Positions 9,743-63,060 of a DNA stretch of 64,000 nt are shown here, in pieces. Position numbers and translations under genes: made by a program. The stretch lies in assembly GCA_016218155.1 (NCBI GenBank), contig JACREQ010000032.1, forward strand, positions 195,506 through 259,505, given 5' to 3'. This DNA is from Bacteroidia bacterium (lineage in GTDB: Bacteria > Bacteroidota > Bacteroidia > Bacteroidales > GWA2-32-17). Below the pieces are notes generated by a model. The model saw nothing but the letters and a program-made list of their open reading frames with translations. It ran no database searches and was not told the DNA's origin. Within the stretch, counting starts at the first letter, position 1; the number at the start of each line of letters is the position of its first letter.

Positions 9743-12070
9743 TTAATTGATAAACAAAATCTTTGTAATAAAGGTTTTAGATCCATCTTCATTTGAGCAA
9801 AAAACAAGATAAACTCCAGTCTGAACTTTTTCACCATTAAATTTTCTACCGTTCCATGTTGCTTGACCACCTTCTGATTTTGTTTGGTATACAACATTTC
9901 CGACAATATCAGAGATTTTTATATCGGCATTTGATACTAACCCGTTTATTGCAATTATACCATCATATCCTGGTTTTACAGGGTTAGGAAAAACTGTAAC
10001 ATCGTGAAAATATTCTTCCGGCTCAGTTGAAGTTGAGCGGTAAGAAATAATTCCGTTTTCGGTTGCAAAAAATACTTCACCTGATACTGGTTCTATAGCA
10101 ATGCTTATTATGGAATTAGCTAAAAGCGGACTATTTTCTTTAGTAAAGTGCAGAATTTCTTTAGTTCCATCAGGCGACATTAGAAAAGCGCCACCACTTT
10201 CGGTACCAAACCATTTTTGATTTGCGCCGTCAATGGCAATGGCTGTAACAGTTTCGGCTTCCAAAAGATAATTTGCTTGTCCTGGATTTTCATTCGGAAT
10301 TTTTACCTGCTGAGCATAAAAATTGGAATTGAAAACATTTTCGGGATTATAATAAAATGGAACCCCTTTATTTGTTCCTACCCAAATAATGCCATCCTTA
10401 TCAACAGCAATAGAATAAACCGCATTTGATATCACATCGCCATTTTCATCAGAAACACTTATGTATTTTTTTTGATCGTCACTAATATTATCAATTGTTC
10501 CATTTTCGTTAAAGGCAAGTAAACCACGTCCACGTGGCAGAATCATCCATTTTGTTTTGTATTTATCTATAACAATCTTACTAATATCATTTGAAATTGC
10601 TTCACTGTATAATGAGAAACTTTTCCATTGTCCGTTTGGCTTTTTTACACTTAATAAATTTGGATAAATCTGACTACCTGAATTTGTAACCCATAAATTA
10701 TTATCTTCATCAACAACAATACCCCCTATAATAGTTACAAGAAAGCTTGGATCGTAAGGTTGCAAAGTACTATTTGTGTAATCATATTTAGCTACAAAAT
10801 TTCCATTGTTAAATTCGAAAACACCTCCTCCATATGATCCGTAAAACACCTGACTGGAATTATTTGAATTAATTGCAATCTCAGTAATATCAGGTGCTGT
10901 ACTTAGTTCAGGAATTTGATTCGCAGAATAGTTTGTCCATTTTTGGTTTTTAAAACTATAAATTTCACCGTTATTCCATAAATTTCTATAAGAAATATCG
11001 TGCCCACCTGGTACAGCATAAACTTCATTTTTTCCGGCGACTATAGAAAAAGTTGTTTTTTTGCTTGGACCGTTTGGTGTTGTATATTCATAATTATACA
11101 TCCCAGCATTTTGCCAAACTAATCCTAAATTATTATCTGCAATCCAAAGAGTTCCATTATTTGAAAGTTCTGCATCTCTAGGTAAAGAGTTTGTTGTAGG
11201 TGAAAAACCATAATAATTTGTGCCTGTTAAATCATTAAATGAATTATAGGTTCTTAAATGAGAGTAGCTACAAATTATTAATTTATTCCCAGATACAACC
11301 ATGTTGGTGATTTCTTTCATAGATGTGTCAAATTTTGTCCATGAAACATTATCGTATATATAGGTAGTATCTTTGTTCCAACCATTGTTACTGTATGTTG
11401 TTAAAATATGGTTATCGAAATAAACTATGTGGTCAAATTTTTTATCGTGATTTGGAATGTTTGCAATTAAAGACCAGTTTGCAAAATTTACAAGATTTTG
11501 ATTGCTTTCAAGGGCTTTATAAATTCCTGTTGTTGTTGCAGCATATAAATATGTATTATCTGAACACATTTCCAATACATCAATGTAGGTCCCATTTGAG
11601 CCTATATAATATGTATCTTTAATCTCATTTCTATCAACATCAAGTACAATTATTCCAAATCCACAGGATAAATAAGTTTTTCCGTTTATGTAATTAATGT
11701 TATTGATAGATTTGCTACCTGTTATATGTTTTCTAAAAATGTCGGATATGTTATAAACTGTATTGTCTTTAATTAAATCAATATTGCCATTTTCATATCC
11801 TATTACAAGTGTATTTTTTTCCGGTATAAATTGTAATGCACTAATTACAACATCTGATAATCCATTTATCTTAGTAAGAGTAGTTGTAGAATTATCATTT
11901 AATGAATATACAAATAAGCCACCGGTTGACAAGCAATAAACTTTGTCATTTGCAGGTTCTACATTTATTCCGGTTGAATAAGGTAAGTGAGCTCTCCAAT
12001 GACCAACAGCAACCTGACTATTGACTTGAGAAGCAAATAAAATTAAAAAAGCACAAATTAAGTTACGCAT
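9743..12070 (-). CDS. Beta-propeller protein with T9SS C-terminal sorting domain, PorZ-like
   Basis: Signal peptide and two-component-regulator-propeller-like repeats throughout. The C-terminal CTD reads VTVFPNPVKPGYDG...IKISDIVGNVVYQ...GVYLVF. At 775 aa it is close to the ~776-aa P. gingivalis PorZ as I recall it. The PorZ assignment itself is tentative. Confidence 0.55.
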   Translation of the reverse strand: MRNLICAFLILFASQVNSQVAVGHWRAHLPYSTGINVEPANDKVYCLSTGGLFVYSLNDNSTTTLTKINGLSDVVISALQFIPEKNTLVIGYENGNIDLIKDNTVYNISDIFRKHITGSKSINNINYINGKTYLSCGFGIIVLDVDRNEIKDTYYIGSNGTYIDVLEMCSDNTYLYAATTTGIYKALESNQNLVNFANWSLIANIPNHDKKFDHIVYFDNHILTTYSNNGWNKDTTYIYDNVSWTKFDTSMKEITNMVVSGNKLIICSYSHLRTYNSFNDLTGTNYYGFSPTTNSLPRDAELSNNGTLWIADNNLGLVWQNAGMYNYEYTTPNGPSKKTTFSIVAGKNEVYAVPGGHDISYRNLWNNGEIYSFKNQKWTNYSANQIPELSTAPDITEIAINSNNSSQVFYGSYGGGVFEFNNGNFVAKYDYTNSTLQPYDPSFLVTIIGGIVVDEDNNLWVTNSGSQIYPNLLSVKKPNGQWKSFSLYSEAISNDISKIVIDKYKTKWMILPRGRGLLAFNENGTIDNISDDQKKYISVSDENGDVISNAVYSIAVDKDGIIWVGTNKGVPFYYNPENVFNSNFYAQQVKIPNENPGQANYLLEAETVTAIAIDGANQKWFGTESGGAFLMSPDGTKEILHFTKENSPLLANSIISIAIEPVSGEVFFATENGIISYRSTSTEPEEYFHDVTVFPNPVKPGYDGIIAINGLVSNADIKISDIVGNVVYQTKSEGGQATWNGRKFNGEKVQTGVYLVFCSNEDGSKTFITKILFIN

Positions 12071-12183: not shown

Positions 12184-13239
12184 TTAATTAAATTCTATTA
12201 CTTCTGTCCAACCATGATTATCGGAAATATTCCCAAACTGAATATCAACAAGAGTGTTATAAAGCTTAGTCGAGATAGGTCCCGGTTTTCCATCTTTACA
12301 AAAATTATAAACTCTGTTTTTATCAGGATCTATAATTTCACCAATAGGGGTAATAATAGCGGCCGTTCCACATGCTCCCACTTCTTCAAAACTATCTAAT
12401 TCGTCGATGTCAATAGGTCTTCTGATAGTTTTTAATCCTAGATCATTTGCTAAATCAATTAAACTCATATTTGTTATTGAAGGTAAAATTGATTCAGATT
12501 TTGTTGTTATATAAGTGTTATCCTTAACAGCAAAAAAGTTAGCAGCGCCAATTTCATCGATATATTTTTTTTCTTTAGAATCAAGATATAATGGAGAACC
12601 GCAACCTAAGTCGTGTGCTTTTGCAATACCTCTTAAGCTTGCTGCGTAGTTTCCGCCTACCTTTAATGTTCCTGTGCCAAGTGGAGCTGCTCTGTCACTG
12701 TCTCTTACTATCGCAATTTTTACAGGATTAAAGCCTTCTTTAAAATATGGTCCAACCGGGCTAACAAATACTATAAATGTATACTCTGAAGAAGGTTTTA
12801 CACCAATTTCGCCACCAGAGCCAAATAACAATGGTCTGATATATAGTGCTGCGCCTGTTCCAAATGGAGGTATAAATTTTTTGTTTAATTGAATAGCCTT
12901 AACTACAGCTTCATGAAAAAGTTCATCAGGAACTTCTGCCATAAATGTACCTTTAGCAGAACGTTGCATTCTTTTTGCATTTTCTATCCACCTAAATATG
13001 CGCACTTTGCCGTCTTTTCCCATATATGCTTTCATGCCTTCAAAAGCTTCCTGTCCGTAATGTAAACCGGTAGCTGATATGTGAATAGGCATATATTCGG
13101 AATCTGAGACTTCCAGTTTGCTCCAAGATCCATTTTTGTAAACGCTTCTAACATTAAAGTCAGTTTTCAGATACCCAAATGGTAATTTCCCCCAATCAAT
13201 GTTTTCCATAGATTCTATTTCTAAAGTTTTTTGTAACAT
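12184..13239 (-). CDS. ilvE: Branched-chain amino acid aminotransferase (fold type IV)
   Basis: Motifs HYGQEAFEGMKAY (catalytic Lys region), IRPLLFGSG, GGNYAASL, GAANFF and ACGTAA, at ~350 aa. An alternative start is Met at 13209. Confidence 0.85.
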   Translation of the reverse strand: MLQKTLEIESMENIDWGKLPFGYLKTDFNVRSVYKNGSWSKLEVSDSEYMPIHISATGLHYGQEAFEGMKAYMGKDGKVRIFRWIENAKRMQRSAKGTFMAEVPDELFHEAVVKAIQLNKKFIPPFGTGAALYIRPLLFGSGGEIGVKPSSEYTFIVFVSPVGPYFKEGFNPVKIAIVRDSDRAAPLGTGTLKVGGNYAASLRGIAKAHDLGCGSPLYLDSKEKKYIDEIGAANFFAVKDNTYITTKSESILPSITNMSLIDLANDLGLKTIRRPIDIDELDSFEEVGACGTAAIITPIGEIIDPDKNRVYNFCKDGKPGPISTKLYNTLVDIQFGNISDNHGWTEVIEFN

Positions 13240-13293: not shown

Positions 13294-13680
13294 TTAGTCT
13301 TCTACTTCCAATGGTACAAAAGTAAAAGGCACTTTGATTATTTCTGAATATTCTTCGCCTACATCAAACATGTCTTCATCATCTACAAGGTATTGCCAAA
13401 CTACTTCAACTTTGTGACCAGCTGTTACTGCATTTTCTAAAACTAAGAATAGCGAAAGAAGTGATTTGGATGAAGCTGTATTTAAGTAATCTAGGTTAAA
13501 AACCAGAATGGTTTTTGGATTTGGGTTTTGAAAATATTTGTCGAACCATTCAAAAACTGGTTCATAAAAAGTGTTTACATCTTCTGGTAAGCTTTTACCT
13601 GATATCTCAAATTGATTATTGTCTTTGTTAAGAATAATCTGAGGAGTATCATTTGTTGATTTAATATTTAGTGCTTCCAT
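13294..13680 (-). CDS. SiaC-like / DUF1987 small regulatory phosphoprotein
   Basis: 128 aa. ...TPQIILNKDNNQFEISGKSLPEDVNTFYEPVFEWFDKY...FNLDYLNTASSKSLLSLF... matches the DUF1987 pattern. Thr68 sits in a Thr/Ser cluster. Confidence 0.65.
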   Translation of the reverse strand: MEALNIKSTNDTPQIILNKDNNQFEISGKSLPEDVNTFYEPVFEWFDKYFQNPNPKTILVFNLDYLNTASSKSLLSLFLVLENAVTAGHKVEVVWQYLVDDEDMFDVGEEYSEIIKVPFTFVPLEVED

Positions 13681-13687
13681 AGGATAA

Positions 13688-14263
13688 TCATTTAGTTATA
13701 GTGATTTTTAATGCAAAAAAAGAAAGTTCACCTTCTAATGGAAAGAAAGCAAAGTGCAGTGGATTTCCGGTTTTTCTTGACATGTCGATAAAACCCAAAC
13801 CAGCACCACCTTTTTCTGACAACATTCCATTTTCAAGTTGTTTTTTATATAAATGTCTAAGATCTTCTTTTTTCCTAGATTGTAAATTATTTATTATAAC
13901 TGTTAGGGCTTCCATTTGTTTTTTATCAACCGGATTACCAGCTAAAATACAATATGAGTCTGGGTATTCAGCAACTAAAATGGCTCCTTTTTTTGTTAAA
14001 TAATTTTCTGTTACAGCAAATTCCAGAGCATGTTTATCAATATTCTGAAGGCACTCAATCATTACATTAAACAATTTTTTCTGAATCATTCGATTCTCTG
14101 CATTATCAATAAGATGCTTTTCTGTTGTGAAAGTCAATGCCTTGGTAATTTCATGGTTAACTTCACCTTCGTAAAATAAAATAGTGTTTGAAATAAGAAC
14201 TGTAGGTTCAAATTCCTTTAACAATGAGAGAAAAGAAAGTTGGTTAGATGTTTCAACAGCCAT
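13688..14263 (-). CDS. SiaB-like GHKL-fold protein kinase (anti-sigma-factor-like ATPase)
   Basis: 191 aa. It has an N-box-like NVMIECLQNIDKHA and a G2-box-like EKGGAGLGFIDMSRKTG. It sits 7 nt upstream of the DUF1987 gene, as in siaB-siaC pairs. Confidence 0.55.
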   Translation of the reverse strand: MAVETSNQLSFLSLLKEFEPTVLISNTILFYEGEVNHEITKALTFTTEKHLIDNAENRMIQKKLFNVMIECLQNIDKHALEFAVTENYLTKKGAILVAEYPDSYCILAGNPVDKKQMEALTVIINNLQSRKKEDLRHLYKKQLENGMLSEKGGAGLGFIDMSRKTGNPLHFAFFPLEGELSFFALKITITK

Positions 14264-14315
14264 CTTTCGTATAATTTTGGCTTAAAGTTATAGAAAAGTT
14301 TTTAAATAAGGGTAA

Positions 14316-14888
14316 TCAAATGTTATATGATATAAAATTTTGTATTTCTTTAATAATTTCTTTTACTGTAAGTATTTTATCTGTACTCTTATTATTAATA
14401 CACGATAATGGCATTACAGATACTTCACATTCATCTGGTTCTTGTGCTATAGTTGAACCTCTATTTTCTTTTATTTTAAGAAATCCATTTGCGCCGTCAT
14501 CATTGGCTCCCGATAAAATTATACCAAGTAAGTTATTATTATAGTACTCTGCTGCTGTAAAAAAAGCTAAATCAATTGAAGGTCTTGAATGATTTATTTC
14601 TTCTTCTACTGATAGCCCAATGCTTCCATTTTTTAAAATGTACATATGGTAATTGGCTGGAGCAATGTAAATGTTATTGTTTTCAATAACTTCTTTATCA
14701 TTAGGTTCAATTATTTTTAAAGAGGAATTAATTTGCAGTGTTTCTGCAAAGCCTTTTCTTGCAGAACGTAGTCTATGTAAGCAAATAAATATGGGCATGT
14801 CGATTTTCTTAGGAAGTATTGAAATTATTTTCATTACAATTTTAAAACTTCCAGCCGAACCACCTATAATTATTGTTTTATTTGTCAT
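14316..14888 (-). CDS. cheB: CheB-type protein-glutamate methylesterase domain, stand-alone (no receiver domain)
   Basis: Motifs IIIGGSAGS (Ser11), FICLHRL (His38) and ILSGANDDG (Asp131). The spacing (27 and 93 residues) is close to the CheB Ser164/His190/Asp286 triad. The gene overlaps the upstream gene by 4 nt. Confidence 0.75.
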   Translation of the reverse strand: MTNKTIIIGGSAGSFKIVMKIISILPKKIDMPIFICLHRLRSARKGFAETLQINSSLKIIEPNDKEVIENNNIYIAPANYHMYILKNGSIGLSVEEEINHSRPSIDLAFFTAAEYYNNNLLGIILSGANDDGANGFLKIKENRGSTIAQEPDECEVSVMPLSCINNKSTDKILTVKEIIKEIQNFISYNI

Positions 14889-15730
14889 TTGCTTTTTTTA
14901 CAAAAAATTTTTTCATTATTTGAAATAACATTAAACATAGTAGAAAATTCTTTGGGTAAATTTTCATTTGTACCAATAACAAAATAGCCTTTTGGTTTTA
15001 TTAGTGATATAATATCTTTAAAAACAGAATAGGTGTTTACATCGGAATAAACTAAAGTTTTATTTCTGCATATCACTAAATCATATTCAACTTTATTAGA
15101 TATATGGTCTTTGTAGTTTAATATATGCACGTTGTTGGTTAAATAATCCTTTTTAAATGATAATATGTTGTTATTTAATTCAAGATATTTTGTAACGTCT
15201 TTATTTAAAGTTAGTACCTTAAAATTTAATAAAGAAGACCGGTTTTTTGGTTGAGCCAGTATTCCTTCATTAATTTTACTTATAGAAAAATTTGATGGAC
15301 TTGATATGTGAACATTAATATTATTATTAGGAAAATATTCGTTAAGCAGAATTAACATGCTATAAAGTTCTTCCCCAGTAGTAGCATTATAAATTAATAT
15401 TTTTGAATTTTCTTTAATTAAAATTTCTTTTAAAATTTTATCGCGTAAATATATCCAAGTGTCTGTATCACGAAATAATTCGTTTTCACCCGGAAATAAG
15501 AATCCGGTTAAAATATCTATTTTCTCAGTATCTAATAATGCTGGTTTCTCAATTACTTGCTCAGGTAATAATTTAAGAAAAGAAAATGCATCTGATAATC
15601 TTTTTCTTAAAACAAAATTATCAAATTGATTTAGATCAAAATATAATTTGTCTGAAATAATTTCTTTAATCGCCTGAACTATATCTTCATTAAGAATATT
15701 GAGAGTTGTGTTATAGTTTTTCTTTAACAT
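14885..15730 (-). CDS. CheR-fold paralog with degenerate SAM-binding motifs
   Basis: Colinear with CheR (ELFRDTDTW, TGEELYSMLILL, DLVICRN). However AGC-S/T-GEE is NATTGEE, GTDI is ISSPS and CRNVLIYF is CRNKTLVYS. Confidence 0.55.
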   Translation of the reverse strand: MLKKNYNTTLNILNEDIVQAIKEIISDKLYFDLNQFDNFVLRKRLSDAFSFLKLLPEQVIEKPALLDTEKIDILTGFLFPGENELFRDTDTWIYLRDKILKEILIKENSKILIYNATTGEELYSMLILLNEYFPNNNINVHISSPSNFSISKINEGILAQPKNRSSLLNFKVLTLNKDVTKYLELNNNILSFKKDYLTNNVHILNYKDHISNKVEYDLVICRNKTLVYSDVNTYSVFKDIISLIKPKGYFVIGTNENLPKEFSTMFNVISNNEKIFCKKSK

Positions 15731-15738
15731 ATAATTGA

Positions 15739-16578
15739 TTACATGTTTAAAGGCTTTTTAATGTAACATTGTCCTTTTTTAGTAAATTTAGAAGATGCTG
15801 GTCCCATAATACTTTCATGAAGACCAATTACTAAAAATCCATCATCATTCAGATTCTCCCAGAATAAATCAAATATTTTATTTTGCAAGTTGTTGTTAAA
15901 ATAAATTAAAACGTTTCTACATATTATAAAATCGAACTTTTTGCCAAAAATATTTTTGTCTTTAACTAAGTCATGTTTTAAGAATGAAGCTTTGTTTAAT
16001 AAAAATGGTTTAATTCTAATAGTATCTTTAGCCTGATCAATATCCATATATTTAGAATATGGAATTTTCTCTTTCTCGGAGATTGTATTTAACACCTGAT
16101 CAAAATTGGGCAGATATTCTACATTAAAGCGGTATTTGTAATTGCCTTTTGCTGCTTCTTCTAATATTTCGGTATTTATATCAGTGCCAATAGTGTTAGT
16201 TTTTTCAAGTAATCCGTTTTCGTTCATAAACATTAACATCGAGTACAATTCTTGTCCTGATGAACATCCTGCATGCCATAAATTAATCGAATCAAGAGTT
16301 TTTAGTTTGGGTATAATTTCTTTTTGAATTTCGAGCCAAACTTTTGGGTCTCTAAAAAGCTCAGTAGTATTAACAGTTATGTCGCGAACAATTTTTTCTA
16401 AGAAAGTAGAGTTGTTTTTTGCTTTCTTAATTATTTCGGTTAATGTGCAATTGTTATCATTTACAATTTTTTCCATTCTTCTTCTAAACGATTTCTCGGA
16501 GTAATCAGAAAAATTATAAGTAGAAAGTGATGCAAAGATTTCTATAAACTCTTTTATTTCCTCGTCACGAATTTCCAT
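15739..16578 (-). CDS. cheR: CheR-type protein-glutamate O-methyltransferase
   Basis: Motifs TELFRDPKVW, LWHAGCSSGQELYSM, IGTDIN and FDFIICRNVLIYF, with a canonical N-terminal helical domain plus SAM-binding domain. Confidence 0.85.
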   Translation of the reverse strand: MEIRDEEIKEFIEIFASLSTYNFSDYSEKSFRRRMEKIVNDNNCTLTEIIKKAKNNSTFLEKIVRDITVNTTELFRDPKVWLEIQKEIIPKLKTLDSINLWHAGCSSGQELYSMLMFMNENGLLEKTNTIGTDINTEILEEAAKGNYKYRFNVEYLPNFDQVLNTISEKEKIPYSKYMDIDQAKDTIRIKPFLLNKASFLKHDLVKDKNIFGKKFDFIICRNVLIYFNNNLQNKIFDLFWENLNDDGFLVIGLHESIMGPASSKFTKKGQCYIKKPLNM

Positions 16579-16756
16579 TGAAAAGCATTTAACTGTTCAA
16601 AAATACTATTTAAAAATAAACTCCAATCAATTACATTAATAACTTTTTTACTATTTTATATTTTCTCAACAAAATCAGCAAATTAAGCAGTTAAATATTT
16701 TTTGTAAAAAAACTCAAAAACTCAAAATCTTAAAAATTTTCAGGAAAAAAAATTTC

Positions 16757-16764
16757 TATCTTTG
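16757..16764 (+). promoter_or_regulatory. Candidate -7 promoter box (TATCTTTG) for purQ
   Basis: TAnnTTTG match 25 nt upstream of ATG 16789. Confidence 0.35.
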
Positions 16765-20962: not shown

Positions 20963-21847
20963 TTAATATTCCCACAAATCGTGTTCGAATTTGAAGATAA
21001 AATCTTTAATATTATCCGATTCTGTTAAAGCATCTAAACCATATTTAAATTCACCAATACGACGGTTGTCGTATACATTGGTTTCTTTAAAAATATAGCT
21101 ACTAAAACGACGTTTAAAAAAGATATCATCAAATGTACGACGTTCTGAATCAGTATTAGAATTGAAAACTTCATGGTTTGCTAATAAAGGACGTGCAGCT
21201 GGAAAATAAACCCAGAAAACTTGTTTCATTTCAAGATCTTTTTCTTCAGTTTCACCTTCAGTAGGAGCTGTTACTTCCTGATTAACAGTAGCAGTTCTTT
21301 CATACATTCTGATAGGACACATACCTACAATTCTTACTTCTAACATTGCTCTCTGTTTATCAAAGTACCAAACTTCTTTTAGTAATAACCTTGTAACTTC
21401 AGAAGTGTTTCTTTCAACTTTAAAAACTTTTTGCACTTGTTCTCCTGTTTCAGGATCATCAACATAAGCTGTGTCATTTTTTACACCAAACTTATCATCT
21501 AATTCTAAAGCAGTCATAGGAGTTGTGAATTCATCATCACCTGTATTATAAACTACAAGTCCTTCTGATTCAACCCCGTAAAGCAACAAGTCAATTAAAC
21601 TATATCTATCATCCATTTTTTGAGTGGGATAATAAATAGGATGATTAATTTTTTCACGTAGATCCAACATTCTCCATATTTTTTTAGACCACATCATATC
21701 TGCTTCACGCAAATGATGATAAGGAACCGGTTTACGGGCAGGAACATGTTCCTTTACATAAACACCGTCTAATACATCGCTTACTTGTGCTTTAGCAAAA
21801 GGAACGATAAAAACGGCAATTGTCAGAACTAAAATAATCTTTTTCAT
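20963..21847 (-). CDS. gldN: T9SS/gliding protein GldN (PorN family)
   Basis: Signal peptide, GldN-like sequence (...WSKKIWRMLDLREKINHPIYYP...) and position directly after gldM. Confidence 0.8.
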   Translation of the reverse strand: MKKIILVLTIAVFIVPFAKAQVSDVLDGVYVKEHVPARKPVPYHHLREADMMWSKKIWRMLDLREKINHPIYYPTQKMDDRYSLIDLLLYGVESEGLVVYNTGDDEFTTPMTALELDDKFGVKNDTAYVDDPETGEQVQKVFKVERNTSEVTRLLLKEVWYFDKQRAMLEVRIVGMCPIRMYERTATVNQEVTAPTEGETEEKDLEMKQVFWVYFPAARPLLANHEVFNSNTDSERRTFDDIFFKRRFSSYIFKETNVYDNRRIGEFKYGLDALTESDNIKDFIFKFEHDLWEY

Positions 21848-21864
21848 AACCTTTAATTATTAGG

Positions 21865-23535
21865 TTAATTTAATTTAAATGAAATTGTACCAATATCACT
21901 TACAGTACCATCTGGTCCTTTAGCTTTTACATTTTCAATATAAACTTTTTTACCCTTTGGTACTTTGTTAATTAAGTCAATTTGCTGAGGTGTAAATCTA
22001 CCACCATTTGATGGAGCATCCTGAGTAAAACCTCCAATACTTGCTGAAACGTTGAAACTTACAACAGAGAATTTTAATTCAAAGTCAAAGTTTTCAAGTG
22101 TTGCAGCAGGACCAGCTTGTGCAGATAATAATCCTTTACTAATTGTACCGCCTTTTTGACCACCACAAGTAGGAACTGGAGAAGGTACTCTTTTAATACG
22201 GAACTCTTTTGATCCCATTGATTTAGAGCCACCTTTATCATCTTTTGCAGATACTGAAATATTGCATTTTCCTACTTTTGTAACTCTGGCAACCCAACCT
22301 TTTCCGGATTTAACTAATGAACCACCTGAACAGTTTGCAGAAATTTGGTCATCTCTGAAACCTGGAACAGATATTTCAATAGGATTGTCAACACCAATAT
22401 ATAAAACATTCATTTTAGTAGGAGATACAACTGCCATAGGAGGTGCAACATTATACTCGATACCATATTTTCCACCTGATTTTACAGGATAACTTGTCAT
22501 TACACCGGTTGTTGCATTAAAAACTCTGATTAATGCTGAATAAGTATGACTTCCACCACCGGCGTTTGGTACTATATATTTACCAATTCCATCTTTAAAA
22601 TTAATAGTTTGAGATGGATTAATAATTTCATTTTTAACTGAATCATATGCTTCACCAATAACAACCTGAGAAGTTGTATCAGTAGAACTATATGCAGCAA
22701 TAAATAATTCTGCTTCATAAGAGTCACCTTGAATTATGTAATTACTTTTAGGAATTACACGTGGTGCTACAACGTCAAATTTAATATCCTCAGAACCAAT
22801 ACCACCTAATAGTGTTTGAATTACTGTTGCTTCAGCATTTTTAACCTGATTTTGAATCTGAGTTAAAAGAGTTAAAGTTGCAGCACAAGGGATTTCGGCA
22901 AATAATTTAGTTTCCCAATATTTTTCATCTGGTTTGTCAGGATCAAAGTTCTTATCATCATCAGTATTAATACCTAATTCACCTAACTTTTTAATTACAG
23001 TATCCTTTTTATTAAGAATAATTTTAGGATCTCTTAATAAATCCAAAGCTTTCTTTTTAAAGTCAATTAATTTATTTTTAAGATTTCTGGCTTCGCCTTG
23101 AGAACCGTCACCAGCTTCACCTAACATAAATAAATGAGGAATATCACGATTATCTTTTGCTTCAAATTTCATCATGTCTTCCTCTCTAATAGCAGCTTCA
23201 GCATCAGTTGCACCGTCAGCTTTTTTGATAATCTGAATTTTCAAATCTTTGATATAAGCATCAAGTTCATTTGAAAGTTTTTTTACATTTTCTGCTGCAT
23301 CGTAGTATGGAGTTACTTTTTTAGGATCGTTACCTTTTGCAAAAGCTAATGATTGATAAGTAAATCCATTTCGTTGTGTAAAATTGACGTTTGTTTGCTG
23401 AAGTCCTTTATTTACAACAACGAAGGCATTAAGTATTTCTTTTGAAACGTTCAATGCAAGCATCGCCGTTAAAAAGAGATACATCATTCCGATCATTTTC
23501 TGCCTCGGGGTTTCGGGACAATTGGTTGCACCCAT
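21865..23535 (-). CDS. gldM: T9SS/gliding protein GldM (PorM family)
   Basis: Canonical N-terminus ...ETPRQKMIGMMYLFLTAMLALNVSKEILNAF with a single TM helix. A long periplasmic Ig-like region follows. Confidence 0.9.
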   Translation of the reverse strand: MGATNCPETPRQKMIGMMYLFLTAMLALNVSKEILNAFVVVNKGLQQTNVNFTQRNGFTYQSLAFAKGNDPKKVTPYYDAAENVKKLSNELDAYIKDLKIQIIKKADGATDAEAAIREEDMMKFEAKDNRDIPHLFMLGEAGDGSQGEARNLKNKLIDFKKKALDLLRDPKIILNKKDTVIKKLGELGINTDDDKNFDPDKPDEKYWETKLFAEIPCAATLTLLTQIQNQVKNAEATVIQTLLGGIGSEDIKFDVVAPRVIPKSNYIIQGDSYEAELFIAAYSSTDTTSQVVIGEAYDSVKNEIINPSQTINFKDGIGKYIVPNAGGGSHTYSALIRVFNATTGVMTSYPVKSGGKYGIEYNVAPPMAVVSPTKMNVLYIGVDNPIEISVPGFRDDQISANCSGGSLVKSGKGWVARVTKVGKCNISVSAKDDKGGSKSMGSKEFRIKRVPSPVPTCGGQKGGTISKGLLSAQAGPAATLENFDFELKFSVVSFNVSASIGGFTQDAPSNGGRFTPQQIDLINKVPKGKKVYIENVKAKGPDGTVSDIGTISFKLN

Positions 23536-23581
23536 ATTCTAATATTCTTTTTATATCAATTACAACTCTGTTTTGAAAAAA

Positions 23582-24580
23582 TTATTTTGAAAAATTCATA
23601 GCAGAAAGCATATTGCCATAAATTGTATTCATTGCTGTTAGGTTTTGTCCTAACTTAGAGATTTCCTCACGATATTTTTTAACATCGCCGGCAGACTCTT
23701 TCATATTTACCATAATTTCTTCCATACCGCTAAATAATGTTTTTGCGGATTCTAGATGTTCGTTTGTACCTTGAAGTTGTAGTTCATATACTGAATTTAA
23801 TGCAGTTAAGTTTTTAGACATAAGGTGAAGTTGTTCTGCATAACCTTTTGAACCAGTTTTTGTGTTTTCAAATTCTGCATTCATTGCTTCAGCCAATCTT
23901 CCATAAGATTCTGATAATTTTTGACCTGATTCAGTAACCATCACAGCTACTTTTGTTCCGCTTTGTGACATAGTATCAGCAAATGTTCCAACTGATCCGG
24001 CTACAATTTCAGCAGATTTTTCATATGATTTAGCTAGTCCGCTTGCTGAATTATTTAATTCCTGTGCTGATTTACCATATAAATCAGCAAATTCATTTAC
24101 TTTATTTGAAGCTTTTTCAAAACTTGCAACATAGTTATTTGTTGCAACAGAAGCCTCAGAAACATCTGAAAGTTTTTCAGTAGTTTCATTTAAAGAACGT
24201 AAACCATTGCCTAATTTTTCAAAAAGCTCAGGTGTTATTTCTGCATTATTAATTAATGCATCAAATTTTTCAAGAGCGGTTTTCTTTGTATCAATTTCTT
24301 TTTTCTTTACATCATGGTCTTCAATTTCGTCATGCATACCTGCTAATTCTGGATAAGCTAAACTCCAATCCCATTCTTGGTGAAGGGGCTCAAAAGCAGA
24401 TGTGAAAAAGATAAATGCTTCCACAGAAAGACCAATTACAAGCATAATACCTGAACCAGGCCAGTGCATAATTTTAAACATAGCACCTACGAGCACTACT
24501 GCTGCTCCAATGCCATATACTTTTGACATGAAGTTTTTCCAACCTCTAGTTTGAACAAGTTCGCCAAAATTAAATCCCAT
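23582..24580 (-). CDS. gldL: T9SS/gliding protein GldL (PorL family)
   Basis: Two N-terminal TM helices (YGIGAAVVLVGAMFKIMHWPG, MLVIGLSVEAFIFF) followed by a long helical cytoplasmic tail. At 332 aa it is nearer PorL size. Confidence 0.85.
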   Translation of the reverse strand: MGFNFGELVQTRGWKNFMSKVYGIGAAVVLVGAMFKIMHWPGSGIMLVIGLSVEAFIFFTSAFEPLHQEWDWSLAYPELAGMHDEIEDHDVKKKEIDTKKTALEKFDALINNAEITPELFEKLGNGLRSLNETTEKLSDVSEASVATNNYVASFEKASNKVNEFADLYGKSAQELNNSASGLAKSYEKSAEIVAGSVGTFADTMSQSGTKVAVMVTESGQKLSESYGRLAEAMNAEFENTKTGSKGYAEQLHLMSKNLTALNSVYELQLQGTNEHLESAKTLFSGMEEIMVNMKESAGDVKKYREEISKLGQNLTAMNTIYGNMLSAMNFSK

Positions 24581-24641
24581 TGTGTTAAAGTTTTTAAAGT
24601 TTAGACAATAATTAATTATTTATTTTACAGCCAATAATGAA

Positions 24642-26051
24642 TTAATATACTTGTGATCCTGAACCACCATCGCTAAAGTCGCGTCCTAAGTACTGACGTA
24701 CGCAACGGAAACCGATATATGATTTTGCAGAATCCTGATATTCAAATGAACGTGTACCACATTGCATATAATATGAAATATCTTTCCATGATCCACCACG
24801 AATAATTTTACGTTTACGTACTGGTGGGTCATCAGGTAAAGCTTCATATTGATAATCTGGGTTTAAATCATCTGTCCAACTATATGCAGATTCATCAAAT
24901 GCATTATTTGTCCATTCTGATACATTCCCTCCCATATCATATAAACCCCATTCGTTAGGATCGTTACTAGCAACAACTAATGGATATATTCCACCATCAG
25001 CTGTGTAATTACCACGCATAGGTTTAAAGTTTGCAATATAACAACCTTTATAATTTTGAGTATAGTAACCTCCCCAAGGATACATTGAACCTTTTAGCCC
25101 ACCTCTTGATGCATATTCCCATTCTGATTCTGTAGGAAGTCTGTAATCCTGAACAAAAGTTTCACCCATTGATTCAAGGAAGTAGCTATTTAATAATTGT
25201 GTTCTCCATACACAGAAAGCACGTGCCTGTCTCCATGAAACACCAACAACAGGGTAATTATCAAAAGCAGGATGCCAGAAATAACTTGCCATTGGTTCGT
25301 TAAATGAATATGTAAAGTCACTAATCCAGCAAAGTGTATCAGGATAAATATTTACAACATCACGAACAATATATGATGAACGATCTTTTACTGCAATTCT
25401 CTGACCTTTGGTAGCACTTTTATAATTATAGTCAGTAACTTCACCATCATATTTGTTTTCGTCTGCATTCCAAGCACGGCGTGCTTCATTATTGAAATCA
25501 TATTTTTTTGCAGCCTGTCTTAAGTCTAGCCAGAAATACTCGAAATTTAACTTTCTTGTATCTAACTCCTTACGGCGATAGAAACGTTCATGTTCAGGTA
25601 AGAACATTTCGTTAAGAATTTCTCTTTGTTCAGGATCATTCCATTTAATTTGTTCTTCCCAATTAATAAATGGAGGATTTACTTCTTCACCAAAATCATT
25701 TTCAGTTCTTAGAAACTGTTCTAATTGCGCACCAAGTAGCTTTGAAGCTATGGAGTCGCGAACCCAGTTCACAAACTGACGATATTCGTTGTTTGTAATT
25801 TCTGTTTCGTCCATCCAAAATGGAGCAATAGAAACTGTTTTGGTTTCAGCAGTCATAGCCCATGGAACATCCTGATCATCAGGACCCATATTGTAACTAC
25901 CTGCTTGGCAGAAAAGCATACCATAAGGTTGCGGTTCAAACCATGCCTCGCGATTGGGAACTCCTACTAATTCGCCGTTACCGGTATTAGAGCAGCTGTT
26001 TAGACCAACTATTGCAAGGAAAAGAAACAAAATTAACACTAAAGTTTTCAT
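24642..26051 (-). CDS. gldK: T9SS/gliding lipoprotein GldK (PorK family, FGE-sulfatase fold)
   Basis: Lipoprotein signal MKTLVLILFLFLAIVGLNSC, then motifs PVVGVSW, GGNVSEW, RGGSW and GFRCV. The track ORF extends to ATG 26087, but 26051 gives a normal signal peptide. Confidence 0.85.
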   Translation of the reverse strand: MKTLVLILFLFLAIVGLNSCSNTGNGELVGVPNREAWFEPQPYGMLFCQAGSYNMGPDDQDVPWAMTAETKTVSIAPFWMDETEITNNEYRQFVNWVRDSIASKLLGAQLEQFLRTENDFGEEVNPPFINWEEQIKWNDPEQREILNEMFLPEHERFYRRKELDTRKLNFEYFWLDLRQAAKKYDFNNEARRAWNADENKYDGEVTDYNYKSATKGQRIAVKDRSSYIVRDVVNIYPDTLCWISDFTYSFNEPMASYFWHPAFDNYPVVGVSWRQARAFCVWRTQLLNSYFLESMGETFVQDYRLPTESEWEYASRGGLKGSMYPWGGYYTQNYKGCYIANFKPMRGNYTADGGIYPLVVASNDPNEWGLYDMGGNVSEWTNNAFDESAYSWTDDLNPDYQYEALPDDPPVRKRKIIRGGSWKDISYYMQCGTRSFEYQDSAKSYIGFRCVRQYLGRDFSDGGSGSQVY

Positions 26052-26093
26052 AGGACATTTATTTATATGAGAACTTCCAATTTTCATTATTAA

Positions 26094-27041
26094 TTATAAA
26101 AATCTAACACTACGTGATGTACCTCTTGGACCAGCTTTCTTAAGATTAAAGCAATATTTTGCCATAAACTCAACAGAGCCACTTTCATATGATTTAAGTT
26201 TTGAGATCGTAAAATCATATGCTAAAGCAAAGGTTATATTTGATTGAGTTGTGAATCCTACCATTGCGACAATTGCATCACCAAATCTGTAAGAAATTCC
26301 ACCTCTGAATTGTTTGCGGTATTCTATCATAGCATTTAAATCATATTGATTTGTTTTACCATCTGATTTAATAAATGCAGAAGGAATTAAACCCCAGTTT
26401 TTATCTGGTAACTGAATAAAAGATCCAACTATAACATAATAATGTCTTGCAACGAAAGGCATTTTTCCTGCTTCATACTTCAAATCTGGTTGAGTTAAGT
26501 GAGTTGACGATATTCCACAATAAATTTTATCGCCTTTTGCTCTATAGAAAACTCCAAGATTTGCATCAAAAACGAATTTGTTTTCTGAATGAGGAATCAA
26601 AGGGTCTAGGTATGGATTTGTACCTGGGTTATTTAACTGATCAGGAGTTTTCCATTCTCCATCTAATGATTTATTTAAGAATCCAAAACCTAAACCTATT
26701 CCTAATGAGCCGTCGCCTATTTTTAATTTATAAGCATAATTCAGATTAAGAAATGTATTCTTCTCAAATCCAAGTTTATCACTCATTACATTTATTCCAA
26801 CTCCACTGCTAATGCTTGGAATTGACATGTCGCCACTAAATATCATCGTTTTAGGCGCTCCGTCAAAACCCATCCATTGTTGACGATAAAGTAATGAAGC
26901 ACAAATAGCTTCATTACTACCAGCAAATCCAGGATTAACTGGTAAAATATTGTATTTATTTAAACTTAATTGAGGATCTTGCTGTGCTAACAGGCTAAAA
27001 CCCACAAAAACTAAGATAAAAAGAGAAATTAATTTCCTCAT
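26094..27041 (-). CDS. porP: PorP/SprF-family T9SS outer-membrane protein
   Basis: Signal peptide MRKLISLFILVFVGFSLLAQ, then QDPQLSLNKYNILPVNPGFAG, the PorP/SprF hallmark. The beta-barrel-like C-terminus ends ...VRFL. The track start 27083 is also possible. Confidence 0.8.
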   Translation of the reverse strand: MRKLISLFILVFVGFSLLAQQDPQLSLNKYNILPVNPGFAGSNEAICASLLYRQQWMGFDGAPKTMIFSGDMSIPSISSGVGINVMSDKLGFEKNTFLNLNYAYKLKIGDGSLGIGLGFGFLNKSLDGEWKTPDQLNNPGTNPYLDPLIPHSENKFVFDANLGVFYRAKGDKIYCGISSTHLTQPDLKYEAGKMPFVARHYYVIVGSFIQLPDKNWGLIPSAFIKSDGKTNQYDLNAMIEYRKQFRGGISYRFGDAIVAMVGFTTQSNITFALAYDFTISKLKSYESGSVEFMAKYCFNLKKAGPRGTSRSVRFL

Positions 27042-27335
27042 ATTCAAATATTTACTTCTCGGTTTGTTATGTTTAAACATCACTTTATCACTTGGTAAAG
27101 TAAATAAAAATATTCTTTACATCCAAATATTACCAACACTTTTCGGTTAATAACTCTCTAAAATTTTCAACTTTGTACGATAAGACTTTAGAAAGGTTTT
27201 AATTTGTTGGCATTTATCTGATATTTTTTTTTATATTTTTATTTTACTTGTTGATATTATTTTTTTAGAACTTTAATATATTTTCAGAATTATTAACGAT
27301 GGATTGTTTTAAATTGTTGTGTTATGTATTGTTTT

Positions 27336-54635: not shown

Positions 54636-57600
54636 ATGATATTATATGGAAGAATAATGATATTCAGAATATTAATTCTTTTTTGTTTTTTTAGTTTCTC
54701 CTGTGTTTATAACATCAATGCTCAGGATAAAGTTAAAACTACTCAGGATACTGAGTTGGAACAAAAAGCATTTACACTTTTCAGAGCAGAGAATTACATA
54801 GAAGCACTTCCATTATTTTCTCAATTACTAAGTCTTTATCCAAAAGAGCCAAATTATAATTTTGGTTATGCTGTTTGTTTAATAGAAACAAATCAACAAA
54901 TTGAAAAAGCTATAAAATATCTGCAATTTGCCGATAGTAAAAGTGATAATCCTTTAATAAAATTCTATTTAGGAAGGGCATTTCATTTAAGCTATAAGTT
55001 TGATGAGGCATTAACAAATTATGAAGCTTATTCAAAAAAAGCACTACCTGCAGACAAAAAGAAATATTTACTGGATAGCAGAATTGCTATGTGTAACAAT
55101 GGAAAAGAACTTATTAGGTATATCAGTGATTTAACTGTTGTTGATAATAAAAAAATTAAAAACGATAACTTTTATTATTCATATGAATTAAAAGATTTTG
55201 GTGGAAAACTTATTGTAAAACCGCCTGAATTTAAGACTAAGCTTGATAAAAAATATGAAACTGTAAATAATGTTATTTTTTTTCCGAATAACGGTAAAGA
55301 GGTATTTTATGGAAGTTTTGGTGAAAATAAAGCAAACGGTCGTGAAATTTTTAATATAAAAAAGAACTTAGATGGAACATGGAGTAAACCAGTGAATATT
55401 GGTTCTGTAATAAATACTCCATATGATGAGGACTATGCTTTTTTACAAGCCGATGGAAAAACACTTTATTTTTCATCAAAGGGGCATAATAGTATGGGTG
55501 GCTATGATATTTTTAAATCTGTATTTGATAGTACTGCAAATGCATGGACAAAGCCAATTAACCTAGATTTTCCTACAAATACTCCATATGATGATTATTT
55601 GTTTATTACAGATAAGGATGAGTTGTATGCTTATTTTGCATCAAACCGTGAAACCAATGGAGATAATATTTCGGTTTATAAAATTGTAGTTGATAAAAAA
55701 CCTGTTGAAAGACAATTTAATAACATAGATGAAATTTTAAATACCTCAAAACTTGAAGTATCAACTTTAGCTGATATTAAAAAGGCTGAAAATTCACATA
55801 ACGATGCTAACAATAAACAATTATTAACTAATAATGTTTCAAATAACAATAATCAGTTAACTTCAACTAATTATAAGTTTAAACCTATTACTTATTCACC
55901 AAATATTACAACTCAACAATTAAGTTCAGAGGTAGATAAAGATGAAAAGGAAATTAACAATCAGGCTAATAATTTAAGAAAACAAAGCGATATTGCTTAT
56001 CTGTCTGCTATTGAAAAAAATAATCAGGCAAATAACAAGAGAAAACTTGCAAGCGATAAAACAAATGAATTAAGTAAAATTACAGATATAAATTTAGCCG
56101 AAAAGAAAAAGCAAGAAATTTTTGACTTAATAACCGAGGCTGAAAATCTCGAGAATAATGCAGTTACGGCATATAATGTAGCAAAAAATCTGGACCAGGT
56201 TGCAACAGATATTGAAGAGGATGCTGCAAAAACAAAAAATATTAAGGAAGCAATTAATAATTCTGATAATGTAAATAATGAGAGTTTAGTTGAGATTGTA
56301 AATAAGAATAAAGACCAGCTTAACAAGAGTCAGAATAAATACACTACAATCGAAAATGAAATAGAAAACAGAACTAGTCTTGCTAACAGTAAGCAAAAAG
56401 AGTTTTTGCAAAACGAAAAAGAATATAATGCCAATTTAAATGATATTTCAAGCACTGAAGATGAAATTAATACTCTAAAACAACAGATAGATAACGAAAA
56501 TGATAATAATAAGAAAACAGAACTTGTAAAACAGTTAGAGAATAAAAATAAACAGCTTGAAGCATATAATTCTAAGGACTCTGTTCTGGAAGACAGCTAT
56601 GAAAAATCAAAAATCGTTAGTGAAAATTTACAGGAAGAAGTTAAATTTTTAAAAGGACTACAGAATAATGTGTCCGTTGATACACGTACAACACAGGATT
56701 TAGCTGTGCTAACAAAGAACATTAATAAAGATCAGTTACATAAAGATATTTTTGACAAAGAACTTACTTTTGACGTGAAGAATGCTAATGCAGTACTTAA
56801 CAATAATAATTTGACTGCAAATAATAACAAGCAGAATATTATTAAAAGCAATAATCAAGTAATAAATAATACCGAAGCAAATAATATAAATTCCGAAAGT
56901 CTATATGTTCAGGCAGAAAAAAACAAGAAAATAGCAGACTCATTACAAAATGTTATATCTGTAAAAGAGAAAGTAATGGCTTCAATTACAGATCCTAAAA
57001 AGCATGCTGCTGCATATAATGAAATTACTCAGTTAAATGATTTAAAAGAGTTAAAAACTAAACAAAGTGAAGAGTTGTTAAAACAAGCTAAGGCAAATGA
57101 TAAAACACTTGTTTCAAATAATACTAATACAAATATTTATAACAATAATTCTGTTTTTCCATTTAATAGCGATAATTCAACAAATACAAATCAGGATTCA
57201 AAGCTTGTAACATATCAGAAAGAAGTTTTGAATGCTCAGTATTATGAAAATTTAGTTCGTGAGCAAAGAACTAAAGTTGATATGTTAAAGTACAGTTTGA
57301 CAAATGCAACTGATGCAGATTCTAAATCTAATACTGAAAAACAAATTGCAGAATTAAATAAAGAGATTGAAAAGAATACTCTGATCAGAAACCAAAGTAA
57401 AGCCAATGTAGAAAAATTACATAAAGAGGCTGTTTCTGAAGTAGATGTTAATGCTATAACAAATGAACAGTTAGTATTGAATGCTACTCAATATAAAATG
57501 AAGAGTGAGCTAAATTTAACTAATGAGCAAAAACAGGTGATGAGCTTGGTTGAGAATGATAGAGAGTTTTTAAAGGGAATTCAGAAAAATTGTAACGAGA

Positions 57601-61833: not shown

Positions 61834-63060
61834 ATGGAAAAAAGAACAACCATGGGCCTAATATTTTTCATTAAGAAAACTAGGCTGTTAAGAAACGGAG
61901 AAGCTCCGGTTTATTTAAGAATTACTATTAAAAGTAAAAGAGTTTAAATTGCTTTAAACAGAAGCATTTATGAAAAACTTTGGGGTAGTGAAATTGGAAC
62001 TGCAATAGGAAACAGTCAGGAAGCTAAAATGATAAATGGCTACATTGACAGTGTTCGAACACAGATTCATAATTACATGAAGATCCTGAGAGAAGACGAT
62101 ATTGAAATAACGGCTGAAAGTCTAAGAAATGCTTATCTGGGTATTGAAGAAACTGAAAAGGGAATTATTTAACTTTTTAAAGAGCACAACGAAAATGTAA
62201 AAAAACTTATTGGAAAAGACTTTGCACCTGAAACTGTAGAACGATATGAAACCAGTTTGATGCACACTGAAAATTTCATTAAATTATTTTATAAAAAAAC
62301 AGAACTCCCAATCTCACAAATCAATCACAAATTCATTACTGATTATGAATTGTACTTTAAAACTGAAAGAAATTGTTCACACAACACTACAATGAAGTAC
62401 ATTAAAAACTTCAGAAAAATTATTCGCATTGCTCTTGCAAACGGAATTATAAAAACTGATCCTTTCTCAAACTTTAAAATGACAATAAAAAAGGTGGATA
62501 GAGAATATTTGAACGAAGAAGAATTAGAAATTCTACTAAATAAAAAATTTGATTTTCAACGATTAGAACAAGTAAGAGACTGTTTCCTTTTTTCATGCTT
62601 TACAGGTCTTGCACATTCCGATTTAAAAAGATTAACAAAAGAAAATATAGTTACCGGAACAGATGGTAAATTATGGGTTAAAATTAATCGTAAAAAAACA
62701 AATAATTTAAGCAGCATCCCCATATTACCGATAACTAAAAGCTTAATTGAGAAATATGCATATAATGAATATTGCATGACTCATAATGTCCTTCTTCCAG
62801 TTTACACAAACCAAAGAATGAATGCATATTTAAAGGAATTAGCCCTAATTTGTAAAATAAATAAAAACCTGTCAAGCCATATAGCTAGGCATACTTTTGC
62901 TACAACTGTAACACTTAACAATGATGTTCCCATTGAAACTGTTTCTAAAATACTTGGACATTCTTCTATTAATATGATAAAAATTTATGCAAGATTACTT
63001 GATAAAAAGGTTGGAAACGATATTAAACATTTGCATGATAAGTTTTCAATTATTAAATAG
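61834..63060 (+). pseudogene. Tyrosine recombinase/integrase (Bacteroidota Arm-DNA-binding + SAM-like + catalytic type) disrupted by two in-frame TAA codons
   Basis: One frame reads MEKRTTMGLIFFIKKTRLLRNGEAPVYLRITIKSKRV*IALNRSIYEKLWGSEIGTAIGNSQEAK...EKGII*LFKEHNENVKKLIGKDFAPETVERYETSLMHTENF... and runs into track ORF 62257-63060. The stops are at 61945-61947 and 62170-62172. The catalytic motifs HIARHTFAT and LGHSSINMIKIYA are intact. Confidence 0.85.

Follow-up and report, generated by a model that had tools for sequence, protein, structure and literature searches.

Within a 64,000-nucleotide stretch of the genome of a Bacteroidia bacterium (GenBank assembly GCA_016218155.1, contig JACREQ010000032.1, positions 195,506 to 259,505; hereafter the window), five minus-strand open reading frames (ORFs), running from 16578 to 13294 and separated by 8, -4, 52 and 7 nt, encode a CheR methyltransferase (CheR1), a second protein of CheR fold (CheR', also called CheR2), a CheB methylesterase, a SiaB-family kinase and the phosphoprotein SiaC. 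All five families are already known and named. The operon fits neither of the systems from which its parts are familiar: it has no SiaA or SiaD, as P. aeruginosa SiaABCD would, and it has no methyl-accepting chemotaxis protein (MCP), CheA or CheW and no receiver domain on its CheB, as a chemosensory (Che) pathway would. It is a reduced member of a so far unnamed Bacteroidota cluster. Our best explanation, taken as a whole, is that the five genes form one operon and that this operon is a lineage-specific reduced version of a widespread Bacteroidota signalling cluster; we regard it as evenly poised between right and wrong.

A preliminary description of the window, made from its letters, had reported five closely packed minus-strand genes, and the ORF coordinates agree. 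Pfam and NCBIfam profile searches support the family that it named for each of the five proteins, every sequence motif that it quoted was located in them, and its account of a receiverless CheB with a Ser11/His38/Asp131 triad, of eroded S-adenosylmethionine (SAM) motifs in the CheR paralogue and of Thr68 as the phosphosite of P. aeruginosa SiaC held up against the structures and profiles given below. The same description proposed an undescribed system in which glutamate methylation or deamidation and phosphorylation might converge on the small switch protein, here SiaC. No description of the coupling was found in the searchable literature, but the five genes are not a self-contained new system: they are the reduced form of a larger cluster that has a PP2C gene between CheB and SiaB and a TerB-ABC transporter gene after SiaC.

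The full Bacteroidota cluster

Species-representative genomes were sampled from three anchors, namely SiaB, a CheR1 profile and the TerB N-terminal domain of an ABC transporter, and the anchor scans returned at least 590 CheR loci and at least 565 TerB-ABC loci. Locus genes were called mechanically as ORFs and annotated by a local phmmer comparison with exemplar proteins, and the locus sets overlap in a few cases (L003/L064 and L010/L066, for example). All three anchors recover one dominant Bacteroidota gene order. The full cluster opens with CheR1, an optional transmembrane (TM)-HAMP-GAF-PAS sensor, CheR' and a CheB consisting of the catalytic domain only (positions 1 to 4). A TM-GAF protein of ~255 amino acids (aa) occupies position 5, and position 6 is taken by a SiaA-like TM-GAF-PAS-PAS-SpoIIE/PP2C protein of ~870 aa (~1100-1170 aa in Cytophagales), whose PP2C domain scores 179 bits against the NCBIfam SiaA model. 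SiaB and SiaC follow at positions 7 and 8, and the cluster ends with an ABCG/White-like transporter that combines TerB, ABC_tran and ABC2_membrane domains (~1020 aa, position 9), a lipoprotein (~300 aa, position 10) and a small exported protein (~145 aa, position 11). The TerB-ABC transporter family comprises at least 8000 protein clusters at E <= 1e-100, and its only name in the sources is 'ATP-binding cassette domain-containing protein'.

The association of Che methylation enzymes with the Sia switch is robust and old. Among 50 transporter-anchored loci with a full 10 kb upstream, SiaB is present in 49, SiaC in 48, the long PP2C protein in 47, the TM-GAF protein in 46, CheB in 45 and CheR in 44, and the lipoprotein and the small protein in 49 each; SiaB also occurs in 43 of the 53 CheR1-anchored loci, with the complete set in 32. 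The preliminary description had taken the five genes for a functional unit and not a chance neighbourhood, and the Che-Sia link found in ~90% of transporter-anchored and ~80% of CheR-anchored loci bears this out, because the juxtaposition recurs in distant full clusters, in several orders and in varied genomic contexts. Carriers belong to the Bacteroidales, Marinilabiliales, Cytophagales and Sphingobacteriia, with some Flavobacteriales and Chitinophagales, and include the cultured Labilibacter sediminis, Geofilum rubicundum, Chryseosolibacter histidini and Fulvivirga lutimaris; CP070654.1 and OY762280.1 are complete genomes that carry the full cluster. The order CheR1, CheR' and receiverless CheB, together with the loss of a particular Asp from CheR', is the same in ~90 loci, the window included; in Cytophagales and Sphingobacteriia the cluster has just one CheR, which is intact.

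At three loci (L145, L147 and L151), the small protein of the cluster is closely followed by a response regulator and a ~1240-aa protein. The ~1240-aa protein matches both CheB and CheR and looks like a fusion of the two, and L151 has no other Che-type gene close to the cluster.

CheR1 and a CheB without a receiver domain

CheR1 (15739..16578, minus strand; Pfam CheR, PF01739, 8e-38) is a protein-glutamate O-methyltransferase that appears catalytically intact. Its SAM motifs are complete (TELFRD, WHAGCSSGQELYS, GTDIN and CRNVLIYF), and its residues 18-261 align to B. subtilis CheR (5ftw). The basic residues R33 and R34 of the N-terminal helix are retained; canonical CheR uses such a basic N-terminal helix on acidic receptor helices.

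CheB (14316..14888, minus strand, 190 aa; Pfam CheB_methylest, PF01339, 2.5e-46) is a methylesterase/deamidase reduced to its catalytic domain, covering just positions 167-353 of the 357-position full-length CheB model. Ser11, His38 and Asp131 fall on the catalytic triad of T. maritima CheB (3sft), and the protein also aligns to 1chd and 1a2o. The CheB ORFs of the full clusters are mostly ~185-200 aa long, and the receiver domain is missing in every cluster. In canonical CheB, as established from structure 1a2o, the receiver domain blocks the active site until it is phosphorylated. Because this domain is missing, the receiverless CheB is presumably constitutively active or regulated in some other way.

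CheR', a paralogue with a degenerate SAM site

The second CheR-fold protein, CheR' (14885..15730, minus strand; Pfam CheR, 7e-13), overlaps the start of CheB with its stop by 4 nt. It retains the TELFRD and GEELYS boxes. Where GTDIN is expected it has ISSPS, so that it lacks the Asp of the ATD(I/L) box, which we take to be the residue that holds the SAM ribose in CheR structures with S-adenosylhomocysteine; its CRNV(L)IYF box is also degenerate (CRNKTLVYS). An AlphaFold2 model (pLDDT 84, pTM 0.85) matches the CheR structures 1bc5, 1af7 and 5ftw across both domains with TM-scores of 0.65-0.74.

These features recur well beyond the window. The Asp of the ATD(I/L) box is absent from 95 of the 248 CheR-like ORFs in the fetched loci, and in nearly all loci with two adjacent CheRs the Asp-less protein is the second one, directly upstream of CheB (L111 and L142 are the exceptions). 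The gap between CheR' and CheB has a median of 1 nt and is no longer than 20 nt in 96% of 94 gaps. We infer that CheR' is a conserved pseudo-methyltransferase whose SAM site is dead; its translation is coupled to that of CheB, and it would most likely act as a non-catalytic adaptor.

SiaB and SiaC

SiaB (13688..14263, minus strand; Pfam DUF6272, PF19788, 4e-35) is, judged by its profile matches, a GHKL-like Ser/Thr protein kinase of the SiaB family. It scores 143 bits against the NCBIfam family model SiaB_fam_kinase (NF038262, cutoff 85) and 71 bits, under the cutoff of 225, against the SiaB equivalog model (NF038264). The N-box residues E70 and N74 and the G-box KGGAGLG are retained, and the protein aligns to P. 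aeruginosa SiaB, chain 6kko_A of the SiaB-SiaC complex.

SiaC (13294..13680, minus strand; Pfam SiaC, PF09345, 3e-38), a DUF1987 phosphoprotein, likewise stays under the cutoff of its NCBIfam equivalog model (86 bits against 150). It has a phosphorylatable Thr at the N-terminus of helix alpha2: Thr68, within YLNTASSK, aligns to Thr68 of P. aeruginosa SiaC (6kko_C), the experimentally shown phosphosite that is the target of SiaB and SiaA (PMC7647112). SiaC is structurally STAS-like (PMC7647112, PMC8457831). The SiaC of the five-gene lineage has changes near T68 (K62N, F66L and D76S) and in the region of the C-terminal acidic helix (E106D, A107V and E120x), as well as Y124x. All these positions are otherwise invariant in every transporter-linked SiaC, with or without CheR/CheB nearby, and the changes fit an output partner that has been lost or replaced.

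The conserved acidic helix of SiaC, DDEDMEEAGEEY, was considered as a Che-specific methylation site and rejected, because transporter-linked SiaCs without CheR/CheB in the vicinity show the same conservation.

Other forms of this pair exist. In about 40 loci of Bacteroidales/Rikenellaceae (L019-L055 and L061-L063; for example, L020 7935-8519), a SiaB-like DUF6272 gene (~194 aa) lies amid housekeeping genes, with no SiaC, PP2C or Che gene nearby; these genes make up an orphan SiaB-like subfamily. Long-form SiaB-like proteins of ~373-381 aa (L057 1204-2712, L059 7914-9427, L060, the first pair of L067, and L106 4906-6429) are paired with a divergent SiaC in which the acidic DDEDM..EAGEE helix is missing, and constitute a separate SiaB/SiaC subtype; this subtype adjoins a CheR1-type gene in L106 and L067.

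Origin of the five-gene form by loss

The closest relatives of the operon are found in six metagenome-assembled genomes (MAGs; CAILUD01, CAIQJL01, JAVHRE01, JAVHRJ01, MENF01 and JBBIRU01), two Logan contigs and four JGI metagenome contigs, which have the same five genes and the flanks of the window (purQ on one side, ilvE and PorZ on the other). The five-gene form occurs in this one freshwater/groundwater lineage. Synteny among these relatives (L001-L007, L015 and L229-L232) was rejected as proof of coupling: it reflects vertical inheritance, since the flanking purQ, ilvE and PorZ are conserved too.

The position of the lineage comes from a midpoint-rooted neighbour-joining distance tree, without bootstrap support, of concatenated CheR1, CheB, SiaB and SiaC, built on 761 columns from 90 loci. 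The five-gene loci group there as a single clade on a long stem, nested among the full clusters that carry CheR'; this clade is sister to the main Bacteroidales group, with the Marinilabiliales and then the Cytophagales/Sphingobacteriia outside. This nesting supports common descent of CheR1, CheB, SiaB and SiaC with the genes of the full cluster, and because the five-gene form lies inside the full-cluster clade, it was derived by loss. The lineage appears to have lost the TM-GAF and PP2C genes between CheB and SiaB, and the transporter, lipoprotein and small-protein genes after SiaC. Other reduced forms occur elsewhere: CheR1, CheR', CheB and TM-GAF followed by housekeeping genes (L072, L100, L104, L107 and L111), CheR1, CheR' and CheB alone (L065), and CheR1 alone, divergent from a sensor-PP2C-SiaB-SiaC-transporter array (L110, L113, L114 and L124).

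A reduction of this kind might have left five functionless genes that merely stayed adjacent after the sensors, the phosphatase and the transporter were deleted. Such a decaying remnant would account for the long stem branch of the clade and for CheR', which evolves ~4-5 times faster than its neighbours (56% identity where these have 85-90%), and CheR1 is split into ORFs of 200 and 103 aa in one metagenome relative (the near-identical contigs L229, 1035-1897, and L230, 1822-2684). A frameshift, the onset of decay or a fault in the assembly could explain this split. Against decay, the five ORFs are intact in the six MAGs and they are uninterrupted in the two Logan contigs (one of them partial) and in two of the four further metagenome contigs, with SiaB identities as low as 63%. 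All five genes are under purifying selection, with ratios of nonsynonymous to synonymous substitution (dN/dS) of 0.03-0.10 for CheR1, CheB and SiaC (0.03-0.07 for CheR1, 0.07-0.10 for CheB), 0.05-0.21 for SiaB and, despite its fast evolution, 0.15-0.31 for CheR', values that are rough because dS is near saturation. Of the positions with at least 90% conservation in 82 full clusters, the genes of the window retain 73-87% (53 of 61 in CheR1, 55 of 67 in CheB, 41 of 52 in SiaB and 40 of 55 in SiaC), among them all the catalytic motifs and Thr68. We therefore hold decay to be highly improbable.

The two contigs with the split CheR1 also have ~1.1 kb with an 80-aa ORF between SiaC and ilvE.

Absent partners and the question of chemoreceptors

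The preliminary description had stated that the usual partners of both systems are missing from the window, and two screens agree with it: Pfam searches of ORFs of at least 150 aa and tblastn with exemplars found no MCP, CheA, CheW, CheY, PP2C, GGDEF or TerB-ABC gene in the 64 kb. No homologue of the TM-GAF or TM-GAF-PAS-PAS-PP2C protein was detected there by tblastn, and just 52 nt separate CheB from SiaB. No transporter follows SiaC in the window, where ilvE comes next, and the sole ABC match is an MlaF ATPase. None of the best 120 TerB-ABC homologues from a protein search that returned at least 8000 clusters lies on the 261-kb contig of the window. Among the best 80 of at least 565 loci in the TerB profile scan, the MAG JBBIRU01 is the only five-gene-form genome, and a single-protein scan for TerB-ABC and PP2C in five-gene-form genomes returned one unrelated close relative.

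MCP-type receptors are, to our knowledge, the only established substrates of CheR and CheB. CheR1 and CheB could thus serve ordinary MCP-type receptors encoded elsewhere in the genome, with SiaB and SiaC as a downstream output branch and no new kind of methyl acceptor. The preliminary description had conceded that a conventional che system with MCPs in the genome would weaken its proposal, and this is partly the case: MCPs occur in related genomes, including JBBIRU01, and none in the window. Locus L017 of this MAG, which also holds the five-gene locus L006, has an MCP-CheR-histidine kinase (HK)-CheD-CheB(full)-CheY-CheC-PP2C-SiaB-SiaC array beside TerB-ABC; proteins with the MCPsignal domain are encoded 6-8 kb from the reduced loci L072 and L107; and in Marinilabiliaceae the cluster is immediately preceded by an entire MCP-STAS-CheY-Hpt-CheA-CheW-CheW-CheR-HK-CheD-CheB(full) system. 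The R33/R34 helix of CheR1 also speaks for a receptor of this type. The same MCP-containing clusters, however, own a CheR and a full-length CheB, so that the additional trio would be redundant. Marinilabiliaceae retain CheR1, CheR' and CheB beside the GAF and PP2C genes despite the CheR and CheB of the upstream system, which speaks against that MCP as the target of the trio. Moreover, in none of the 50 transporter-anchored loci did a local homology screen pick up an MCP in the 10 kb upstream, no MCP, CheA or CheW is encoded in the window, and the usual feedback from CheA cannot act on a CheB without a receiver. We consider conventional adaptation unlikely, although it deserves to be taken seriously.

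Two of these arrangements merit description in their own right. In JBBIRU01 (L017/L144), a second SiaB/SiaC pair closes an array in the order MCP, an unassigned gene, CheR, HK, CheD, full-length CheB, CheY, a CheC-like protein, a short PP2C (323 aa), SiaB and SiaC, which is convergent with TerB-ABC, lipoprotein and small-protein genes; one and the same output module is therefore fed by a Che phosphorelay in some cases and by a GAF-PAS sensor phosphatase in others. Labilibacter sediminis CG51 has a same-strand supercluster of ~20 genes (L116 1-20718; similar in L123, L125, L131, L138 and L141), in which the Che genes, in the order given above for Marinilabiliaceae, and a TM-GAF-PAS-PAS gene are directly followed by CheR1-CheR'-CheB-TM-GAF-PP2C-SiaB-SiaC-TerB-ABC-lipoprotein. 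A complete chemosensory pathway is thus joined to the partner-switch and transporter cluster in a cultured organism.

A model for methylation of a partner switch

A more far-reaching reading, to which we give somewhat less than even odds, is that Che-type reversible glutamate methylation has been recruited in Bacteroidota onto a non-chemoreceptor part of a PP2C/SiaB/SiaC switch that gates an ABC exporter, with CheR' as the pseudoenzyme adaptor for the receiverless CheB. Adaptation through methylation and switching through phosphorylation would then be united in a single device. By analogy with P. aeruginosa SiaABC, SiaB would phosphorylate SiaC on Thr68 and the PP2C protein would remove the phosphate, and unphosphorylated SiaC would bind and control an output protein encoded nearby. 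In the full cluster this output would most plausibly be the TerB-ABC transporter, because it sits where SiaD sits in Pseudomonas; in the lineage of the window the output partner has probably changed. CheR1 would methylate glutamates on some component of the switch and the receiverless CheB would demethylate them, which would provide adaptation or control of gain as for chemoreceptors. The most likely acceptor in the full cluster would be the membrane GAF/PAS sensor-phosphatase complex; in the lineage of the window, an unlinked sensor or one of the two Sia proteins, SiaB or SiaC, may take that place. What we infer in this model is which protein accepts the methyl groups, how CheR' acts, what the output is and that a phosphatase is encoded away from the operon.

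Several observations weigh against this proposal. True MCPs exist in some related genomes (L017, and near two reduced loci). No linked protein has an MCP-like helical hairpin domain, and none stands out as the methyl acceptor. A SiaB/SiaC switch without a phosphatase is incomplete, and no PP2C is encoded in the 64-kb window. The reduced forms keep differing partners (TM-GAF only, SiaB/SiaC only, or neither), and the co-location of the five genes therefore does not name the substrate. Finally, with dS near saturation, dN/dS is only a rough guide to selection.

The direction of control may also be the reverse of the one proposed. Unphosphorylated SiaC would then bind CheB or the CheR'/CheR1 pair and replace the receiver domain as regulator of methylesterase or methyltransferase activity, leaving the Che enzymes as the sole remaining output in the five-gene lineage. 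The receiver domain is missing from CheB in every cluster, CheR1, CheR', CheB, SiaB and SiaC are exactly the set retained under selection after the losses, and modulation of adjacent proteins is the role proposed for DUF1987 proteins in the work on the SiaC-SiaD structure (PMC8457831). Nevertheless, a contact of SiaC with CheB or CheR has to be assumed, conservation of the acidic SiaC helix goes with the transporter and not with CheR/CheB, and a methyl acceptor and a phosphatase are still required. We judge this reversal improbable.

A separate candidate for the methylation site, the N-terminal 'SEE' of the TerB domain, was rejected because it is not invariant.

Genomic context of the operon

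The operon is preceded by an AT-rich intergenic region of 183 nt (16579..16761, no strand assigned) shared with the divergent purQ, and its promoter is presumed to lie there from the gene arrangement alone. A scan for the sigma-70 consensus upstream of the operon gave nothing above shuffled sequences, this consensus being unsuited to promoters of the Bacteroidota type. At the other end, ilvE (branched-chain aminotransferase, 12184-13239) lies on the same strand 54 nt past SiaC, with no terminator-like hairpin between them, and an inverted repeat with a 20-bp stem follows ilvE at 12173-12128; ilvE may be co-transcribed with the five genes in this organism. The lowest G+C content of the window (0.261, against ~0.30-0.33 elsewhere) is in the interval 14001-16000, which spans CheR', CheB and part of CheR1 and coincides with the fast-evolving CheR'.

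The remainder of the window holds housekeeping genes and genes for gliding and the type IX secretion system (T9SS), namely gldKLMN, PorP/SprF, PorZ and Por_Secre_tail proteins, in line with the Bacteroidota context of gliding and T9SS that the preliminary description had recognised. The core gliding/T9SS operon (20963-27083), 4.4 kb from the five genes, encodes a probable GldN, then a 556-aa ORF at the place of GldM, GldL, a GldK-like protein of the FGE-sulfatase type and PorP/SprF; the profile matches behind these names are GldL_N, FGE-sulfatase, PorP_SprF and PorZ only, and GldN was named without a profile check. PorZ (9743-12070) lies 1.2 kb downstream of the five genes, and the closeness of both the T9SS operon and PorZ to the module is kept across the lineage. 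Elsewhere in the window are a 2158-aa protein with TPR, PD40 and SPOR matches (54636-61112) and, close to the window end, a tyrosine recombinase gene of the phage integrase family (62257-63060).

Comparison with known systems

The nearest characterised relative is SiaABCD of P. aeruginosa, which shares with the operon a SiaB-family kinase and a DUF1987 SiaC with the same Thr68 motif (YLNT[AS]S), encoded by adjacent genes in the same order; relatives of the window also have a SiaA-like membrane PP2C immediately upstream of SiaB. The differences are considerable. The window has neither the PP2C (SiaA) nor the GGDEF protein (SiaD), and its SiaB and SiaC fall below the NCBIfam equivalog cutoffs. 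In the relatives, a TerB-ABCG transporter and not a cyclase follows SiaC, and the sensor part of the cluster phosphatase is TM-GAF-PAS-PAS. The upstream CheR, CheR' and CheB have no counterpart in the Pseudomonas operon.

The Che adaptation system, including alternative cellular function pathways such as Wsp, shares the fold and SAM motifs of CheR1, the CheB triad and the joint encoding of the two opposing enzymes, and Marinilabiliaceae and L017 place such genes beside real MCP, CheA, CheW and CheY genes. In contrast, MCP, CheA, CheW and CheY are missing both from the window and from the 10 kb that precede SiaB-SiaC in the sampled full clusters of the transporter-anchored set. CheB is receiverless, a second CheR with a dead SAM site is interposed, and the sensors linked to the cluster are GAF/PAS membrane proteins without an MCP signalling domain.

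A third comparison is with STAS partner switches that receive PP2C input (RsbU/V/W, HptB-HsbR-HsbA and BgrSTUWV). There, as proposed here, a GHKL-type serine kinase and a PP2C set the phosphorylation of a small switch protein, whose unphosphorylated form binds the target. The Bacteroidota system differs in having no sigma or anti-sigma factor and a DUF1987 switch protein instead of a STAS protein, and its coupling to glutamate methylation enzymes and an ABC transporter is foreign to those switches.

We found no paper in the searchable literature that couples CheR/CheB with SiaB/SiaC, DUF1987 or DUF6272, nor any description of the TerB-ABC cluster, nor anything relevant beyond the Pseudomonas SiaABCD papers. 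The searchable literature thus also holds no characterised example of the kind that the authors of the preliminary description had said they did not know.

Significance

The cluster hard-wires CheR and CheB to a Ser/Thr partner switch and an ABC transporter in hundreds of species-representative Bacteroidota genomes, and at most of the sampled loci no MCP, CheA or CheW is nearby. As a minimal version that occurs in nature, the five-gene form narrows down the parts that have to remain side by side, and the cultured carriers make the system directly testable. If the methyl acceptor is indeed not an MCP, adaptation by glutamate methylation would extend to a new class of signalling machine, and an abundant, unnamed family of ABC transporters would gain a function.

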